Both the position numbers and the translations under genes were made by a program. This document shows, one piece after another, positions 2,281-62,352 of a DNA stretch of 64,000 bases; within the stretch, counting starts at the first letter, position 1; each line of letters starts with the position of its first letter. The DNA comes from Escherichia coli (GTDB lineage: Bacteria; Pseudomonadota; Gammaproteobacteria; Enterobacterales; Enterobacteriaceae): NCBI RefSeq assembly GCF_003334815.1, contig NZ_QOWO01000013.1. The stretch is one strand, 5' to 3'. Under the pieces are notes generated by a model that saw nothing but the letters and a program-made list of their open reading frames with translations, was not told the DNA's origin and ran no database searches.

Positions 2281-4362
2281 TTACGCATTCGAGTAACGTT
2301 CCGTCTCCGGCATCCAGCGTTCTATCAGGGCTTTTGCCTGTTGTGGGTAACGTTCGTGAATATGGCGTGCCAGGCGCTGAACTTCCGGGATCATCGCCTG
2401 ATCGCGCAGTAAATCCGCCACTTTAAATTCAGCATTACCCGTCTGACGCGTGCCTAACAATTCGCCAGGGCCGCGAATCTCCAGATCTTTTTGCGCAATC
2501 ACAAAACCGTCGTTACTGTCGCGCAGCACTTGCAGGCGAATTTGCGCCGTTTTAGAAAGCGGCGTTTTGTAGAGCAGCACGCAGTGAGAAGCCACCGCGC
2601 CACGACCTACGCGCCCGCGCAGCTGGTGTAACTGCGCCAGACCCAGACGCTCCGGGTTTTCGATAATCATCAGACTGGCGTTAGGCACATCAACGCCGAC
2701 TTCAATAACGGTTGTGGCAACCAGCAGGTGTAGCTCACCTTGTTTAAACGACGCCATCACCGCCTGTTTCTCGGCAGGTTTCATCCGCCCGTGTACCAGG
2801 CCAACGTTCAACTCTGGTAGCGCCAGTTTCAACTCTTCCCAGGTAGCTTCCGCCGCCTGCGCTTCCAGCAATTCCGACTCTTCAATCAACGTACAAACCC
2901 AGTATGCCTGACGACCTTCAGTTATGCAGGCGTGGTGCACGCGGTCAATGATGTCGGTACGGCGGGTATCAGGAATAGCGACCGTAGTCACTGGCGTGCG
3001 GCCTGGCGGCAGCTCATCTATCACCGAGGTATCGAGATCGGCATACGCAGTCATTGCCAGCGTGCGGGGGATCGGCGTGGCGGTCATGATCAACTGATGC
3101 GGATGGAAGCCCTGCTGCTGGCCTTTCTCCCACAATGCCAGACGCTGATGCACGCCAAAACGATGCTGTTCGTCGATAATCACCAGCGCCAGGCCGTTAA
3201 ACTGCACCTGTTCCTGGAAGATGGCGTGTGTACCGACAATCATCTGCACCTGACCGCTGGCGATGGCTTCCTGCTGTGCCAGCCGTGCTTTACCTTTCTG
3301 CTTACCGGCGAGCCAGCCCACTTCGATACCGAGCGGTGCAAACCAGTTGCGGAAGTTATTGGCGTGCTGCTCGGCGAGTAATTCGGTTGGTGCCATCAAT
3401 GCTACCTGTTTGCCGTGGGCAATCGCACGCAACGCGGCGAGGGCGGCGACCAGCGTTTTACCGGAACCTACATCGCCCTGCACCAGACGCATCATCGGCA
3501 CATCCAGCGCCATATCGCGCTCGATCTCCGCCACTACGCGTGCCTGTGCGCCCGTTGGCTTGAACGGTAAGGCGGCGAGGAGTTTATTTTTCAGCGTGTC
3601 ATTGGCGCTCAGCGGCTGGGCATGAAAACGCTGTGCTCCGGCACGTAAGGCTAACATGCTGAGGTTGTGCGCCAGCAGTTCTTCCAGAATCAGACGACGT
3701 TGCGCCGGATGCTGCCCGGTTTCCAGATCGCTAAGCTGTAGCGTCGGTGGCGGGCGGTGCAAAGTGCGCAACGCTTCCGGTAGCGTCATCATTCCTTGTG
3801 ACAGTTCCGGCGGCAGGAGTTCTTCAATGGCGCAGGTGTCGAGCAGATCCAGCGCCTGGTCGGTTAATTTACGCAGCGTGGCCTGCTTTACGCCTTCCGT
3901 TGTTGGATAAACCGGCGTGAGCGTTTCCTGTAATTCTGGCGTGCTGAGATCGCCCTGCACGCGGTATTCCGGGTGGATCATCTCCGCACCATATTTACCG
4001 CGCTTTGCTTCGCCATAAGCCAGTACACGGCGGCCCGCCGCCAGGCTATTTTTCATTGCCGCGCTGAAATTGAAAAAGCGCATGGTGAGGATGCCGGAAC
4101 CGTCGCTGATCTGGCAGGTCATCATCCGCCGACCGCCGAAGGAGATATTGCAGTTCAGCACTTCGCCTTCCACCGTGGCATAAACGCCCGGCAGTAGTTC
4201 TCCGATGGGGTAGAGATGGGTGCGATCTTCGTAGCGCAGGGGAAGGTGTAAGAGTAGATCCTGCACGGTATGCAGGTTGATTTTCGCCAGTTTGTTACTA
4301 AGTGCTGCGCCAACGCCCGTTAGGGAACTGAGTGGGACAGCATCTAACAGGCGACCTTTCAT
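2281..4362 (-). CDS. recG: ATP-dependent DNA helicase RecG
   Basis: ORF track 2281..4395; conserved N-terminus MKGRLLDAVPL begins at internal ATG 4362 (693 aa); Walker A GSGKT and DEQHRFG helicase motifs present. Confidence 0.93.
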   Translation of the reverse strand: MKGRLLDAVPLSSLTGVGAALSNKLAKINLHTVQDLLLHLPLRYEDRTHLYPIGELLPGVYATVEGEVLNCNISFGGRRMMTCQISDGSGILTMRFFNFSAAMKNSLAAGRRVLAYGEAKRGKYGAEMIHPEYRVQGDLSTPELQETLTPVYPTTEGVKQATLRKLTDQALDLLDTCAIEELLPPELSQGMMTLPEALRTLHRPPPTLQLSDLETGQHPAQRRLILEELLAHNLSMLALRAGAQRFHAQPLSANDTLKNKLLAALPFKPTGAQARVVAEIERDMALDVPMMRLVQGDVGSGKTLVAALAALRAIAHGKQVALMAPTELLAEQHANNFRNWFAPLGIEVGWLAGKQKGKARLAQQEAIASGQVQMIVGTHAIFQEQVQFNGLALVIIDEQHRFGVHQRLALWEKGQQQGFHPHQLIMTATPIPRTLAMTAYADLDTSVIDELPPGRTPVTTVAIPDTRRTDIIDRVHHACITEGRQAYWVCTLIEESELLEAQAAEATWEELKLALPELNVGLVHGRMKPAEKQAVMASFKQGELHLLVATTVIEVGVDVPNASLMIIENPERLGLAQLHQLRGRVGRGAVASHCVLLYKTPLSKTAQIRLQVLRDSNDGFVIAQKDLEIRGPGELLGTRQTGNAEFKVADLLRDQAMIPEVQRLARHIHERYPQQAKALIERWMPETERYSNA

Positions 4363-4367
4363 GGCAC

Positions 4368-5057
4368 TTACCCTGCAGCCTGCATAGTAGCCCACCAGTC
4401 GGCATCAGCTTCGATCTCGCCTTGCTGATTGACGTGGGGATAAGGCAGGCCTTTGCGTTTTGCGACTTTCGCCAGCACCGGATAGCCGCCTTCAAACAAC
4501 AGGCGTTGTTGCTCTGCTTCCGGCAACATGCTGTTTTCACGCAGGTACATGCCTGCATTTTGCCGCTGACGCTGGGCTTCGTAAAGAATGAGGGCTGAGG
4601 CAACGGAAACATTCAGCGACTGCACCATGCCGATCATCGGAATGATGATGTCCTGATCCGCCAGGGCCAATGCTTCCTGCGTGATGCCCGTTTTCTCCTG
4701 TCCCATCAAAATGCAGGTCGGGCGAGTGTAATCAATTTCGCGGAAATCGACAGCGTTATCAGAAAGATGGGTTGCCAGAATCTGCATGCCCTGGCCTTTG
4801 AGATGAGCGACGGCATCGCCAATGGTGCGGTGTGTTTTCACCTGTACCCAGCTGTTACTACCCGCCGCTGCCGAAGCCATGGTGCGCATGCGGCTACCAG
4901 GCCAGACGGCGTGAACTTCATGTACGCCAACGGCATCTGCGGTACGAATAATCGCAGAAACGTTATGAGGTTTGTGGACCTGCTCCATGCAGACGGTCAG
5001 ATCAGGCTGCCGCCTGGCGAGCATTTCGCAGATGCGTGCATAACGTGTTGGGTTCAT
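4368..5057 (-). CDS. trmH: tRNA (Gm18) 2'-O-methyltransferase TrmH (SpoU)
   Basis: ORF track 229 aa; SPOUT methyltransferase; sits between spoT and recG. Confidence 0.9.
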   Translation of the reverse strand: MNPTRYARICEMLARRQPDLTVCMEQVHKPHNVSAIIRTADAVGVHEVHAVWPGSRMRTMASAAAGSNSWVQVKTHRTIGDAVAHLKGQGMQILATHLSDNAVDFREIDYTRPTCILMGQEKTGITQEALALADQDIIIPMIGMVQSLNVSVASALILYEAQRQRQNAGMYLRENSMLPEAEQQRLLFEGGYPVLAKVAKRKGLPYPHVNQQGEIEADADWWATMQAAG

Positions 5058-5063
5058 AAAACA

Positions 5064-7172
5064 TTAATTTCGGTTTCGGGTGACTTTAATCACGTCTGGC
5101 ATCACGCGGATTTTGCGCATGATATTCGCCAGATGCACACGGTCACGAGCGGTCAGACGAATAAAGGCGCTGTAGACGCGACCATCTTTCTCTTCCGTAT
5201 TCAAACTTTGAATATTCGAAGTCGTGGTGTTAATTGCCGCCGTCAGGTTTGCCAGCGCACCCTGATGATTGAACATCTCCACCTTGATTTCGGTGATGAA
5301 CTCCTGCGCCGTCTCTTTATCCCATTCCACAGCCATAAACTTCTCTGGCTCTTTCTGGTAGCCACGGATATTACGGCAGGATTCATGGTGGATCACCAGA
5401 CCTTTACCGGGGCTGACGTGGGCGATAATCGGGTCGCCAGGAATAGGGCGGCAGCATTTCGCAAAGGTGATCAGCACGCCATCGGCACCTTTAATGGGCA
5501 GATGTCCGTGGCTTTGGGTTGCCGGTGGAATGGAGGCGTCCCCATGTTGCAGATTTTTCGCGACCACCACGCTCATTGCGTTACCAAGTCCGATTTCTGC
5601 CAGCAGATCGTCAAGCGTTGCCAGCTTCATGCGATCCAGCTCGCGCTGAATATTTTCCTGCGGGATTTCATTCAGCTTACGGCTACCACCCAAAGCATGG
5701 TTGAGCAGACGACGGCCCAGGCTTACAGAATCATCACGCTTGAGGTTTTTCAGCAACTGACGAATTTTGGCGCGCGCTTTCGAGCTAACGACAAAGTTCA
5801 GCCAAGCGGCATTCGGGCGAGCGCCCGGAGCGGTAATGATTTCAACGGTTTGACCGCTGGTAAGCGGCTGCGACAGCGGGTAAGGCTGGCGGTCAACGCG
5901 TGCGCCCACGCAGGCATGACCGATATCGGTATGCACTGCATAAGCGAAGTCGACGGGCGTTGCACCGGCAGGCAGCTCGACAATGCGCCCTTCCGGTGTG
6001 AAAACGTAAATCTCATCCGGGAAGAGATCGGATTTAACGCTCTCGATAAATTCAAACGAACTACCGGCGCTCTGTTGCAGCTCCAGCAGGCTTTGCATCC
6101 AGCGCTGGGCGCGGATTTGTGCGGTAGTACTGGTTTCGCCGTGCTCTTTATAAGCCCAGTGCGCGGCAACACCCATCTCCGCCATCTGGTCCATATCTTC
6201 GGTACGGATCTGGACCTCAACCGGCACACCGTGCGGGCCGATCATCGAGGTGTGCAAAGACTGATAGCCGTTCGCTTTTGGAATGGCGATATAGTCTTTC
6301 ACGCGGCCCGGACGCGGCTTGTACAGGCTGTGCATCTGGCCCAGCACGCGATAACAGGTGTCAGAATCATTGACGATCACGCGGAAAGCGTAGATGTCCA
6401 TGATCGAGTGAAAACGCTGCTCTTTGAGCACCATTTTGCAGTAAATCGAATAAAGATGCTTCTCGCGACCACTGACGCGGCACGGTATTCCCGCTTCCTG
6501 CAAACGCCCTTCGATTTCAGAAAGAATCTTCTGGATCATCTCTTTACGGTTGCCGCGCGCGGCTTTCACCACTTCTTTGATTACGCGATAACGGTTGGGA
6601 TACAGCGCCTCAAAACCCAGCTCTTCGAGTTCGGTTTTAATGTGGTGGATACCTAAACGGTGCGCCAGCGGGCTATAAATTTCGAGAGTTTCACGGGCGA
6701 TGCGGCGACGTTTGTCCGGGCGAAGTGAGCCCAGCGTGCGCATGTTGTGGGTACGGTCGGCAAGTTTGATGAGGATGACGCGGATATCCTGCACCATCGC
6801 CATAATCATCTTGCGAAAGTTTTCGGCCTGCGCCTCTTTCTTATCGCGGAACTTGAGTTTATCAAGTTTCGACACCCCCTCTACCAGCTCGGCGACGCTT
6901 TTACCAAAAAGCTGTTCCATATCCTGGTAGGTGGCGGGAGTATCTTCAATCACGTCATGCAGCAGCGCCGCCATCAGCGTTTCATAGTCGAGTTTCATCT
7001 CGGCCAGAATGCAGGCAACCGCTACCGGGTGCGTGATATAGGGTTCACCGCTTGAACGTGTTTGCCCCTCGTGAGCATCACGTGCAACGAGATACGCCTG
7101 CCGCAGACGCTTGATTTGGTCTTCCGGCAGGTAGGTTTGAATCAGTTGATTCAGGCTTTCAAACAGATACAA
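5064..7172 (-). CDS. spoT: bifunctional (p)ppGpp synthetase/hydrolase SpoT
   Basis: ORF track 702 aa; HD hydrolase motif (HDVIEDT) plus RelA/SpoT synthetase region; directly downstream of rpoZ. Confidence 0.95.
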   Translation of the reverse strand: MYLFESLNQLIQTYLPEDQIKRLRQAYLVARDAHEGQTRSSGEPYITHPVAVACILAEMKLDYETLMAALLHDVIEDTPATYQDMEQLFGKSVAELVEGVSKLDKLKFRDKKEAQAENFRKMIMAMVQDIRVILIKLADRTHNMRTLGSLRPDKRRRIARETLEIYSPLAHRLGIHHIKTELEELGFEALYPNRYRVIKEVVKAARGNRKEMIQKILSEIEGRLQEAGIPCRVSGREKHLYSIYCKMVLKEQRFHSIMDIYAFRVIVNDSDTCYRVLGQMHSLYKPRPGRVKDYIAIPKANGYQSLHTSMIGPHGVPVEVQIRTEDMDQMAEMGVAAHWAYKEHGETSTTAQIRAQRWMQSLLELQQSAGSSFEFIESVKSDLFPDEIYVFTPEGRIVELPAGATPVDFAYAVHTDIGHACVGARVDRQPYPLSQPLTSGQTVEIITAPGARPNAAWLNFVVSSKARAKIRQLLKNLKRDDSVSLGRRLLNHALGGSRKLNEIPQENIQRELDRMKLATLDDLLAEIGLGNAMSVVVAKNLQHGDASIPPATQSHGHLPIKGADGVLITFAKCCRPIPGDPIIAHVSPGKGLVIHHESCRNIRGYQKEPEKFMAVEWDKETAQEFITEIKVEMFNHQGALANLTAAINTTTSNIQSLNTEEKDGRVYSAFIRLTARDRVHLANIMRKIRVMPDVIKVTRNRN

Positions 7173-7190
7173 GGGCGACCCGCTTTGTGA

Positions 7191-7466
7191 TTAACGACGA
7201 CCTTCAGCAATAGCGGTAACGGCTTGTAATTCAGCGGCTTCCTGCTCTTGCTGTTCCTGGCGTTCGCGAACGTCGAGGATCTGGTTGTTGATCAGACCTT
7301 CTTCGATTTCGCGCAGCGCGATTACAGTGGTTTTATCGTTTTCTTCCGGTACCAGCGGATCCTTTCCGCCTACCTGCATCTGACGAGCGCGACGCGCGGC
7401 GACCAGTACCAGGTCAAAACGGTTACCAATTTTCTCTACAGCGTCCTGAACAGTTACGCGTGCCAT
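7191..7466 (-). CDS. rpoZ: RNA polymerase omega subunit
   Basis: ORF track 91 aa [31 protein letters not shown]... Confidence 0.95.
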
Positions 7467-7520
7467 ACTTAAAAAGCTCCACAGGTGAAGAAATGACTGG
7501 GCATGATACTGAAATCAGGT

Positions 7521-10698
<3,178 letters not shown>

Positions 10699-59330: not shown

Positions 59331-59892
59331 GGGGGAGGGGGGAGATTATGGAACTTTGCTCCTTGTAAGGACTAATTATTTTTGCATATTACTTCATTAG
59401 CTGCGATGATTTTTCTTTAATATTCATTATGTTAATAAGTTCTGGATGAGTGTGCTCTCATTGGATTTTTTATCCGTCTTGTTCTGCCGCAGGATGAGAC
59501 TATACATCGTCGAGATCGCAATGATGATATGAGTTGTTCCTCCTGCGACGGCTCTAATCAAAAAAGAGCAGGAGTGCTTTTCCATCTATTGCGATGATGG
59601 CTTTATTATCTGAAGGATGACAGTCACATTTAAAAAATATTTAATCTATAGATCACAATGTAGGGTCATGGAATATATGTATACAACTATTTTCTTCTTC
59701 ACTTTTAATTATCGTATTCATTATAAAACTAAGTTAAAAAAACTCCTGGAGAGTGAGTTATTAATATATTTTTAAATAAAATTAAGTTATCATTCATCGA
59801 TGCACTTTATAGAATCATCAATGGCCATAATAGTACTATTAACTCTCAATTTTATATTTTTATCATCACTACAAATATTAACTGAATTTATA

Positions 59893-60228
59893 TCAATGAT
59901 TTTTTTTATTCTTATCTTTTATTTTATTTACTGTTTCAATGCAATCAGCGGCAAGTTGGAGTGGATTTAGATTTTTCAGATATGGTCTTATGATCTTTCC
60001 CTTACTTAATAAATAGCATGTATAGGATTCGGAAAGTCCAGCATCTATTTTGTACCTCATTATATTAGATAAGGATGTGAGAAATTCCTTGTTATCATTC
60101 GCAGCCATATATGCCAGTCCGAGTTCAGCCTCTGCGGCCTTACAGGCAAAATAGCTTAGTGAACACGCTTTTCGTCCCTCTTTAGTACTGGCTGATATTA
60201 GTGCCCATAATATTGCTTTGTCTGCCAA
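59893..60228 (-). CDS. hypothetical 111-aa ORF at the distal end of the rhs accessory array (possible orphan immunity gene)
   Basis: ORF track only; track start is a TTG and the first ATG is internal; AT-rich; no recognisable motif. Confidence 0.35.
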   Translation of the reverse strand: MADKAILWALISASTKEGRKACSLSYFACKAAEAELGLAYMAANDNKEFLTSLSNIMRYKIDAGLSESYTCYLLSKGKIIRPYLKNLNPLQLAADCIETVNKIKDKNKKNH

Positions 60229-60316
60229 ATCTAACTCTCTCTGAAATTGTCTTGCAGTAACTGCACTCGCAGAAATAGAGAAAAAAATACAATTGTTAAT
60301 AACCTTGCCATATTTT

Positions 60317-60610
60317 TTAGTCCGTAACTGTTAATGTGCTATCTGGCTCTGAAAATATTAACTCATTTAATTTTTGCATGTCATTAGATAAACCAGTTAT
60401 ACAACCCTCGGAACAGAATCGAGGTCCTAAAGACGGACCAAAAGCGTTTAAACAACTATGTATTGAAAATCCATTGCGATTATAAGTTCCTGTATTAACT
60501 GACGGTACTAATCGTATGCCGTCAGGTTTTCTATTGCTTGCTCCCGGGTCATTAACATTCCAACTCCATAGGCCTTGAGGTATTGGCCATCTATTTATAA
60601 ATGTGTACAA
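60317..60610 (-). pseudogene. probable remnant of an orphan Rhs C-terminal toxin tip
   Basis: ORF track 97 aa starting at TTG; lies directly downstream of the degenerate rhs core-end fragment but in a different frame. Confidence 0.35.
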
Positions 60611-60744
60611 CGGGGATTATTTTTACATTGCATATTATTACCAGAAGCGACTGGAATACTAAGCACATCATAAAAATTATCATCACATGGTATATCTGAA
60701 ACACACGAAAGCATACCTAAAGTTATGCTGTATAAACAGGTGGC

Positions 60745-60925
60745 TAATCCCAAGGGGATCGATTCCAGAAATCGGGTTCAACGGATACTGATAAAAATTC
60801 CACCTACCTTCCAGCCCAATCGGAGCCTGAGTGTTATACCGCCCCTGCTGCGGTTAATGTTACCGATAATAGTTATAGTACAGCCCTGATTCATCATCAT
60901 ACTACTGCTGCGGCAGTCTGATGAA
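60745..60925 (-). pseudogene. degenerate Rhs core C-terminal fragment with in-frame stops
   Basis: Reverse translation gives [54 protein letters not shown], a decayed copy of the rhs core end ([20 protein letters not shown]...[24 protein letters not shown]). Confidence 0.6.
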
Positions 60926-60934
60926 CTATTGCTT

Positions 60935-61396
60935 TTACGGATTCTCCTTATTCTTCCTTCTATCCATTCGCTTTAGCTTTTTGAGCTCTTGAAGTTTGCT
61001 CTTTGCATCAATATTACCGTTATTTACAGCGAATTCCATCCAATAAATAGCTCTATTCAAATTATAATATTCTGATAATGTTGGATTTGTATCTGATAAA
61101 AAGACCCCATAATTAAACTGCGCTGTAACATTCCCCTGAGATGCTGATCTTTCCAAGAATCGCAATTGTTTGTAAATGTTATTTTTAGTAAAGCAGTAAT
61201 ATTGATATAGTCGAAATGATGCCTCTGAATCACCATGTTGTGATTTATACTTCAGTTTCATCAACTTTTCTTCACTTAAATCATAGGTCATTGCTGTAGA
61301 CCCCATCATACTTTCGTTTTGTTTTATTTTCACATCAGCACCATGCAATTGACAAATAAAAGAGAAATAAAAAAATAGTAACAAGCATGCTTTCAT
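60935..61396 (-). CDS. yibG: Sel1-repeat protein YibG with N-terminal signal-peptide-like segment (putative immunity protein for the yibJ toxin tip)
   Basis: ORF track 153 aa; 12 nt downstream of yibJ stop. Confidence 0.82.
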   Translation of the reverse strand: MKACLLLFFYFSFICQLHGADVKIKQNESMMGSTAMTYDLSEEKLMKLKYKSQHGDSEASFRLYQYYCFTKNNIYKQLRFLERSASQGNVTAQFNYGVFLSDTNPTLSEYYNLNRAIYWMEFAVNNGNIDAKSKLQELKKLKRMDRRKNKENP

Positions 61397-61407
61397 ACAT
61401 CTACAAC

Positions 61408-62352
61408 CTATCTTATATCACTGGGTTTTTCTGGCGTACCTTGCATATTAGAAATGGGGTGCCCAGATGGCCCATATGTTATCCAATTACCAAGGTCTTT
61501 TGTTGTTATAGCCATTAGATCCTTATTTGAATTAAGGTTCGTTGGTGCTGTTAGCACTGTATCCATTTTTAACTTACCATTAGTTCCTCGCCCCCACCAC
61601 GTCCATAGCGTGTCAGGTCCTATTACATTTGTATGTAACTCTTTAGCTAATTGGCTAGCAAATGAATTTTGTCCTTTACCTGTATTACAAGAAAATAACC
61701 AAACTGTCATCCCATCTTTATAATTCCCATCAAATTTAATTAGATATGCTAGATCTTTAGCTGTCATGATACTGCGCGTTGCGGATTCAATAGATGTGGG
61801 GGTACCATGCCCCCCGATTGTGAAAACGCCTGGGATATTAATCTCATCAGCTACAGAATGGATAAGATCACTTTCGGGGTATAAATTTATATCAACCAAA
61901 CCTTGCGGATCTACATTTATGACCGGATTCAACGGATACTGATAAAAATTCCATCCCCCCTTCAGTCCAATCGGATCCTGAGTGATATACCGCCCCAGCA
62001 GCGGGTCATAATAGCGGTGGCGGTTGTAATACAGGCCGGACTCCTCATCATACTGCTGACCCGGCAGGCGAATGAGCTGCTGCAGATGATGCGGGTTCTC
62101 ATCACTCAGCAGGTTGCCCCATTCATCATATTCTGCGCACCACGCTGTTGCCCCTTCCGTGCTGATGAGCGCCAGCGGCAGGCCGCGATGGTCGCAGTGG
62201 TACAGGTGGATTTTTCGCGCCGGCGTGTACACCGGGTCCATCTGGTTTTGCATCTGCTCCACCGTCAGGCCGCACGATGCCAGCCAGCGGCGGCTTTCCT
62301 CACTCACCCGGTCAGCCAGGATTTCACTTTCCAGCCGGTCGAGCATCTGCAC
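61408..62352 (-). CDS. yibJ: orphan Rhs C-terminal module YibJ: rhs core 3' fragment fused to an alternative C-terminal tip
   Basis: ORF track 314 aa (GTG 62352 or ATG 62346); first ~150 aa nearly identical to the rhsA core end, diverging after DPQGL. Confidence 0.8.

Follow-up and report, generated by a model that had tools for sequence, protein, structure and literature searches.

The stretch of DNA that was analysed, 64,000 nt in length and hereafter called the window, contains the rhsA locus of Escherichia coli K-12 on the reverse strand. Both the window and the curated K-12 annotation show the gene order rhsA-yibA-yibJ-yibG-yibS-yibW-yibV, and the 1.3-kb region that forms the distal end of this array is 100% identical to K-12-type chromosomes. 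When the coordinates of the curated MG1655 record are converted to the window, the pseudogenes yibS (60934-60683) and yibW (60681-60317) are followed by yibV (60228-59893), listed as a CDS for a 'PF15596 family protein', and by the pseudogene yibU (59625-59427), all of them on the minus strand. The RefSeq PGAP annotation of an identical K-12-type record lists two features, an RHS core fragment marked 'internal stop; missing N-terminus' and, at window positions 60311-59790, an 'Imm57 family immunity protein, frameshifted'.

A preliminary description made from the sequence alone had interpreted this region as the third, decayed orphan Rhs module of the array, situated at its distal end, a reading with which the alignments, the lesion map and the curated pseudogenes agree. 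The two ORFs that it had noted downstream of the core remnant, one of 97 aa (60317-60610) and one of 111 aa (59893-60228), are both present and both begin with TTG. They are not chance ORFs: the 111-aa ORF matches Pfam Imm57, an intact allele of the tip to which the 97-aa ORF belongs matches Pfam Tlde1, and the 1.3-kb region recurs, invariably on the chromosome, in 3,701 of the 5,426 complete E. coli genomes; in 3,337 genomes the identity across the region is at least 99%. As detailed below, yibS, yibW and yibV are very probably the broken remnant of an Rhs toxin tip and its immunity cassette, all three parts of which are dead in K-12.

The Rhs core fragment and the toxin tip

Most of the pseudogene yibS consists of an Rhs core-end fragment (60743..60952, minus strand), as delineated by translation, DNA alignment, the lesion map and the curated K-12 annotation. 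At the DNA level, this fragment aligns with the better-preserved core ends of rhsA and yibJ in the same window and with that of an intact orphan, and its translation (from 60955 to 60743) retains the PxxxxDPxG demarcation motif at the 3' end. The N-terminal ~1,200 residues of an Rhs protein are missing, and ~210 nt of core are left. In-frame stops are located at 60937-60935, which is the stop codon of yibG, and at 60928-60926, 60904-60902, 60862-60860 and 60856-60854; in addition, a 3-nt deletion lies near 60933. For the interval 60745-60925, a core-end peptide with three in-frame stops had been reported, and translation yields this peptide and exactly three stops (TAG 60904-60902, TAA 60862-60860 and TAA 60856-60854). 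The fragment had also been placed immediately downstream of yibG. It is present there, but its start has to be moved, as the homology to the Rhs core begins at ~60952 and overlaps the last yibG codons together with the yibG stop (TAA 60937-60935). Consequently, yibG ends on former core sequence, which underlies its last codons and its stop.

Several features assign the locus to the Rhs orphans. [quoted passage not shown] It is established that enterobacterial rhs loci contain orphan modules and that these arise by displacement of C-termini (Poole et al. 2011, PMC3150448; Koskiniemi et al. 2014, PMC3967940). The K-12 copy resembles such orphan rhs-CT/rhsI modules in having a short core up to DPxGL, a variable tip and a small immunity gene, and likewise in its position downstream of the main rhs gene, where a second orphan, yibJ/yibG, precedes it. 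In contrast to these modules, none of the three parts of the K-12 copy is alive any longer, and its ~210 nt of core are riddled with stops.

The toxin tip extends on the minus strand from the DPLG motif to a TAA stop (60317..60760) and comprises the 3' end of yibS and the pseudogene yibW. It is interrupted by two frameshifts. One, of the +1 type, results from an additional base in GATCCCC at ~60758 and falls within the DPLG motif; the other, of the -1 type, is located between 60598 and 60597. These and the other lesions of the module were located base by base by comparison with an intact allele. The 97-aa TTG ORF (60317-60610, minus strand) corresponds to the part of the tip behind the -1 frameshift, its C-terminal two-thirds, and residues 59-150 of the intact tip map to its frame with 88% identity (tblastn). 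In divergent alleles of other strains (~90% DNA identity), the tip frame is open. Hence, of the eroding tip/immunity pair that had been proposed, the decay is borne out, but the 97-aa ORF, rather than being a gene of its own, is a piece of the tip cut off by frameshifts. In the K-12 tip, moreover, the invariant glycine (G61) of the RGPIP motif is replaced by W. A 9-nt in-frame deletion in a GNN repeat of the K-12 tip (60644/60643) is a polymorphism and not a lesion, because the same deletion is found in an intact full-length gene (L021).

The intact tip allele matches the Pfam Tlde1 domain (PF10908, formerly DUF2778) with an E-value of 1.2e-7 over model positions 10-106 of 120. The 97-aa ORF alone scores weakly (Tlde1, E 0.008; YkuD, E 0.038), as expected for a truncated and mutated piece. 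In the window the tip reads H-SCLNAFGPSLGPRFC-SEGC-I, that is, a His followed by 15 residues and S-E-G-C. The His, Ser, Gly and Cys are invariant among close homologues, and Glu takes the place of the second His in the catalytic motif of Tlde1a, HXX14-17-(S/T)HGCh (PMC9638812). The intact tip was modelled by AF2 with moderate confidence (pLDDT 65, pTM 0.65). When this model was compared with the PDB by Foldseek, the best 50 matches were all L,D-transpeptidases or carboxypeptidases with a probability of 0.85-1.0, yet with E-values of 0.006-0.08 and TM-scores of 0.42-0.54. Single-sequence and profile searches against the sequences of solved structures in the PDB, Tlde1a included, revealed no true relative of the tip, and the same searches of PDB sequences revealed none for the immunity protein; likewise, a search of NCBIfam returned no family for either of them.

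By analogy with the characterised enzymes, the tip is best described as a putative Tlde1/DUF2778 toxin of the L,D-peptidase type, with a predicted catalytic activity on peptidoglycan. With the T6SS effectors of the Tlde1 family (Tae5/DUF2778, PF10908) such as Salmonella Tlde1a it shares the Pfam match; a predicted L,D-transpeptidase-like fold and a His...Ser-x-Gly-Cys motif of catalytic type may be further common features. Unlike Tlde1a, however, the tip is fused to Rhs and not free-standing, and the K-12 copy is frameshifted; its motif is SEGC with a 15-residue spacer and not (S/T)HGC; its partner is the all-helical Imm57 and not DUF2195/Tldi1a; and it lacks a detectable sequence match to solved structures.

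The Imm57 gene and yibV

The stop codon of the tip (60319-60317) is followed by 5 nt and then by the ATG of an Imm57 gene at 60311. The whole gene (59790..60311, minus strand; 522 nt, ATG 60311-60309) contains two single-base frameshifts, both of them in homopolymers. The first, a -1 frameshift, lies in a T7 tract (60281..60287, minus strand) that reads T8 or C+T7 in intact alleles. Since T7 is present and not T8, the rest of the gene is out of frame with the ATG (60311) and with the N-terminus MAKLLTIVFFFSISASAVTA, which resembles a signal peptide. The second, a +1 frameshift, lies in an A8 tract (59900..59907, minus strand) that reads A7 in intact alleles; A8 in place of A7 leads to the yibV stop (TGA 59895-59893) and thus to the loss of the last 37 residues. 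The 111-aa TTG ORF (59893..60228, minus strand), which is yibV (b4615, UniProt YIBV_ECOLI), comprises residues 29-136 of the 173-aa product of intact alleles, followed by 'NH'; its start at 60228 corresponds to MG1655 position 3,769,345. From the position of these lesions, yibV is an ORF left open by chance between the two frameshifts of a 173-aa Imm57 gene.

YibV matches the Pfam Imm57 model over its entire length (PF15596; E 1.1e-48, model 1-100 of 100), and the intact 173-aa allele gives an E-value of 1.9e-47. The ORF nevertheless lacks the Sec-type signal peptide (residues 1 to ~20), which is encoded in the other frame, as well as the C-terminal 37 residues with a conserved helix and the near-invariant C147 and C170; the lost helix sits outside the Pfam Imm57 model. 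Intact Imm57 alleles and distant homologues contain the signal peptide, C147 and C170. AlphaFold predicts the intact protein to be all-helical (pLDDT 85, pTM 0.80), with a pLDDT of 93-97 for the helix 150-165, and a Foldseek search of the PDB with this model gave only non-specific helical matches (best E 0.19, TM <=0.3). A working periplasmic immunity protein would be expected to possess an export signal and to be complete with its C-terminal Cys pair, and YibV has neither.

Imm57 is located directly downstream of the LD-peptidase tip in the window, and the same holds for all E. coli loci that were inspected. The association of RHS, Tox-LD-peptidase and Imm57 was catalogued by Zhang 2012, who described the Imm57 family as 'mostly alpha with conserved D, SE, C' (PMC3482391). 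In line with this family (PF15596), the K-12 sequence matches the full-length model and lies beside a Tox-LD-peptidase on an RHS protein in a gamma-proteobacterium; it differs in that the K-12 ORF is a fragment without signal peptide and C-terminal helix. The pairwise dN/dS between alleles ranges from 0.17 to 0.40 and does not show relaxed constraint, but these values mostly reflect the history before inactivation, have little power at small divergences and do not separate a gene from a pseudogene.

Intact versions and allele frequencies

The search for an undamaged tip/immunity pair, which the preliminary description had suggested, was successful in the strains 2014C-3075, Ec73552 and 2013C-4282 as well as in other genera. 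In strain 2014C-3075, an intact orphan consists of an open 258-codon frame that runs from the core fragment into the tip, followed by the 173-aa Imm57. A chimeric DNA probe composed of 1.2 kb of the rhsA core and the intact orphan detected five genomes in which one uninterrupted match carries the annotation 'RHS element core protein'. The yibF/yibH site of Ec73552 and of 2013C-4282 harbors a single full-length rhs gene of 1,392 and 1,389 aa, respectively, without internal stops. The encoded proteins begin with MSGKPAARQGD... and end in the yibW-type tip, and the gene is followed by an intact 173-aa Imm57 with signal peptide. A full-length Rhs with the same tip is likewise encoded by PE164 (1,389-1,392 aa in the three strains), and the 1,392-aa protein of Ec73552 scores 2,628 bits against NCBIfam RHS_core, for which the cut-off is 2,000 bits. 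The single-gene arrangement of Ec73552 may be ancestral or may result from a secondary re-fusion by deletion. For PE164 at least, re-fusion is suggested by the T7-frameshifted Imm57 that lies beside its full-length Rhs-Tlde1 gene.

A protein search in a 90%-clustered database gave no match longer than 249 aa, and the members of the clusters were at most 470 aa in length. The view that no full-length Rhs bears the tip, which was drawn from this search, is ruled out by the chimeric core-and-tip DNA probe. The full-length proteins with this tip probably sit unseen in clusters whose representatives bear other Rhs tips.

A scan of one genome per species revealed ten loci with the tip in other genera. 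In Lysobacter silvestris, Pseudoxanthomonas sp., Luteimonas gilva, a Stenotrophomonas MAG and another MAG, it is located on open frames of 1,514-1,798 codons, and the three long ORFs that were checked, which measure 1,504-1,779 aa when counted from their first start, contain YD repeats and an Rhs-associated core. Each is succeeded by a gene for an Imm57 homologue that bears a signal peptide, and complete sets of Rhs, tip and Imm57 are found in Lysobacter and Pseudoxanthomonas. An Imm57 relative lies directly downstream in seven of the ten loci (tblastn), and the corresponding protein of an eighth, L016, looks homologous after alignment. Imm57 homologues beside the tip are encoded in Nitrosomonas, Paraburkholderia, Lysobacter, Stenotrophomonas, Pseudoxanthomonas and a Methylococcaceae MAG, all of them with an N-terminal hydrophobic signal. 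The non-enterobacterial homologues keep the two C-terminal cysteines, C147 and C170 being near-invariant, and all eight of those with a full-length start are predicted by their signal sequence to be exported.

Allele frequencies in E. coli were determined by means of exact probes against the 5,426 complete genomes, employing an 81-mer for T7, an 82-mer for T8 and an 84-mer for A8. The exact K-12 T7 81-mer is present in 3,207 genomes, the exact T8 82-mer of the matching allele type in 28, and the exact K-12 A8 84-mer in 998. Another 2,324 genomes match the A8 84-mer at 98.8%, and in nine of nine sampled rows the match spans 83 nt and hence corresponds to A7. As T7 and A7 are each the commonest state of their tract, the commonest combination is T7/A7, which leaves a signal-less ORF of 145 aa; products of 145 aa were also found among the matches of the protein search. 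The K-12 combination T7/A8 (111 aa) would accordingly represent one step beyond T7/A7 in the decay. With ~2,324 A7 genomes as opposed to 998 A8 genomes, the 111-aa end point is not a conserved feature.

Alternative readings of yibV and a proposed history of the cassette

Some observations count against the interpretation of the locus as a dead remnant. YibV contains the entire Pfam Imm57 domain, and its mRNA is detectable and 7.9-fold up-regulated with AZT (PMC11228462), which indicates that the gene is transcribed at least conditionally and that some product may be made. Moreover, the tip carries SEGC and not the canonical (S/T)HGC, the model of the tip has a pLDDT of only 65, and each of its fold matches has an E-value >0.001. 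Three other readings of yibV have been weighed.

First, the 111-aa TTG product could function as an orphan immunity protein that shields K-12 from the Rhs-Tlde1 toxins of competitors, a possibility raised in the preliminary description. The complete Imm57 domain, the presence of the transcript and an ORF that is open and identical in many genomes would be compatible with this function, and orphan immunity genes are a known phenomenon (PMC10539506; 10.1101/2025.05.03.651265). However, Salmonella Tlde1a is toxic only when it is directed to the periplasm (10.1101/2020.02.18.954545), and YibV has no signal peptide, its former ATG and signal lying in the other frame (T7 versus T8), whereas eight of eight non-enterobacterial homologues with a full-length start are exported. 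Functional orphan immunity is unlikely because Tlde1 toxins would act in the periplasm, a site of action documented only for Salmonella Tlde1a, and YibV is devoid of an export signal. Furthermore, the C-terminal 37 residues are gone, including C147, C170 and the confidently modelled helix; the end point varies between the 145-aa ORF of the ~2,324 A7 genomes and the shorter ORF of the 998 A8 genomes; and PGAP labels the gene a frameshifted pseudogene. The 111-aa ORF is the middle of a 173-aa gene, without signal peptide and C-terminal helix, and we consider it very unlikely that it confers immunity.

Second, the truncated Imm57 fragment might have been recruited in the cytoplasm to a new function other than immunity. 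A precedent is RhsFI, an Rhs immunity protein of EHEC turned RNA-binding regulator (PMC7618764), the yibV mRNA is inducible, and T7 is a very common allele (3,207 genomes). This wide distribution is, however, explained by shared ancestry, given that identity over the region reaches 99% or more in 3,337 genomes, and the C-terminal end point differs among lineages. RhsFI belongs to another locus (ECs0604, S-loop 44) and to a different fold and was rejected as a homologue of YibV. The literature on yibV/b4615 yielded no data on translation or function, and a periplasmic cysteine-rich helical protein deprived of two conserved cysteines would be unlikely to fold normally in the cytoplasm. We judge such a recruitment to be barely plausible. 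The related idea that a signal-less Imm57 fragment, 145 aa long in most E. coli and 111 aa in K-12, is made in the cytoplasm and might by analogy with RhsFI have acquired a new role is highly improbable as well; if it were true, the 7.9-fold induction of the yibV mRNA by AZT would reflect function and not noise.

Third, transcriptional slippage in E. coli is inefficient at runs of 7-8 bases, and phase variation or slippage rescue, by which some full-length Imm57 would still be made, has next to no probability, even though both lesions lie within mononucleotide runs (T7 and A8) and the state of the A-run differs between lineages, since two independent compensating slips would be required in one molecule, the runs are too short for efficient slippage, and T7 is fixed in 3,207 genomes versus 28 with the matching T8, which argues for inheritance. 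The T7 lesion is inherited and is not subject to switching.

We return to the interpretation of the locus as a broken cassette, for which the following history is proposed. In its intact form, the cassette encodes an Rhs protein of ~1,390 aa that begins with a PAAR-like segment, continues with a shell of YD repeats and has a core ending in DPxGL, to which a C-terminal Tlde1/DUF2778 tip of ~150 aa is attached. To judge from its relatives, it would be a T6SS-type Rhs effector that releases an L,D-peptidase acting in the periplasm. By analogy with characterised Tlde1 enzymes, the tip may act on the stem peptides of peptidoglycan in the periplasm of the target cell, with L,D-carboxypeptidase/transpeptidase activity; Tlde1a trims or exchanges the fourth residue of these peptides (PMC9638812; 10.1101/2020.02.18.954545). 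The next gene would provide the producer with a periplasmic antidote, the Sec-exported, all-helical Imm57 of 173 aa, and the immunity proteins of Tlde1a relatives are likewise exported or membrane-anchored (10.1101/2020.02.18.954545). In the K-12 lineage, newer cassettes (rhsA tip with yibA, and yibJ tip with yibG) would have come to hold the upstream positions, and the presumably oldest and most distal cassette would have been left beside yibH with ~210 nt of core. The lesions would have followed, that is, the stops in the core fragment, the two frameshifts in the toxin, and the changes from T8 to T7 and from A7 to A8 in the immunity gene. The YibV product, if any, would be cytoplasmic and C-terminally truncated; it would not meet an incoming toxin, and no immunity would be expected. 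Reactivation of the K-12 copy by recombination with the main rhs gene looks improbable. K-12 is not known to possess a T6SS.

Nothing at the locus is new in kind; its components are already known. In addition to the catalogued association of the tip with Imm57, Rhs-DUF2778 fusions have been described in Escherichia and Shigella, mainly in the Tae7/Tlde1c family (Sibinelli-Sousa 2020, 10.1101/2020.02.18.954545). The practical correction concerns yibV, which is still counted as uncharacterised in y-ome surveys (PMC11551758) and is listed in the curated K-12 record and in UniProt as protein-coding with unknown function. It is better treated as a pseudogene fragment than as an uncharacterised protein, although this matters little beyond annotation hygiene. 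Taken together, the locus presents a textbook case of the stepwise decay of a displaced Rhs cassette, from an immunity protein of 173 aa via the 145-aa ORF to the 111-aa ORF, and the rare strains with the complete weapon at the same site are a possible source of the intact toxin/immunity pair.

Toxin and immunity gene in other E. coli strains

In E. coli strain PE164 (locus L019), a full-length, stop-free Rhs gene with the Tlde1 tip (3799-7977) is adjoined by an Imm57 gene (7983-8503) that contains the T7 frameshift of the K-12 type. The toxin of this strain is apparently intact, but the adjacent immunity gene is broken. This suggests either an origin of the arrangement by a deletion that fused the old orphan to the core of the main rhs gene, or inactivity of the toxin or of its delivery. 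In strain MLI106K1 (locus L004, 5454-6233), the Tlde1 tip is reduced to its 3′ half, and an intact Imm57 gene is located alongside. This remnant is fused with unrelated sequence, and the fusion lies downstream of both a different main Rhs tip and a gene annotated as 'hypothetical protein'. The junction is a recombination breakpoint within the toxin, with the immunity gene being kept.

Boundaries and neighbors of the third module

The final six codons of yibG and its stop codon (KNKENP*; 60935-60952, minus strand) are homologous to Rhs core sequence, where they align with LNEENPH. The yibG stop therefore stands on former core sequence, and the junction of the displaced module falls within the 3′ end of yibG. 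The second array module, yibJ/rhsJ (61408-62352, minus strand), is an open frame of 314 codons with a GTG start, and consists of a core fragment and a tip differing from that of the third module, followed by yibG. Although the K-12 curation lists it as a pseudogene, it has decayed much less than the third module.

The K-12 pseudogene yibU (59427-59625, minus strand), located between Imm57 and yibH, is a frameshifted transposase remnant of the ISAs1 family (ISEc1, 'H-repeat'), with 58-64% identity to residues 96-159. Strain 2014C-3075 instead has an intact copy of ISEc1 directly upstream of the orphan.

Variation of the tip and of the Rhs N-termini

The toxin tip contains a GGTAATAAT (Gly-Asn-Asn) unit, the copy number of which differs among alleles (window site 60643-60644); K-12 has the short GGTAATAAT form, as does strain 2013C-4282 (L021) in its intact full-length gene.

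Full-length Rhs proteins with this tip are encoded in Lysobacter (L013 5702-10441), Pseudoxanthomonas (L015 5126-10465) and a MAG (L011 5927-10441), and these start with hydrophobic, signal-peptide-like N-termini. In contrast, the E. coli full-length proteins carry a PAAR-like N-terminus (MSGKPAARQGD). This difference hints that the same Tlde1 tip is exported by different routes in E. coli and in the Lysobacter, Pseudoxanthomonas and MAG Rhs proteins.
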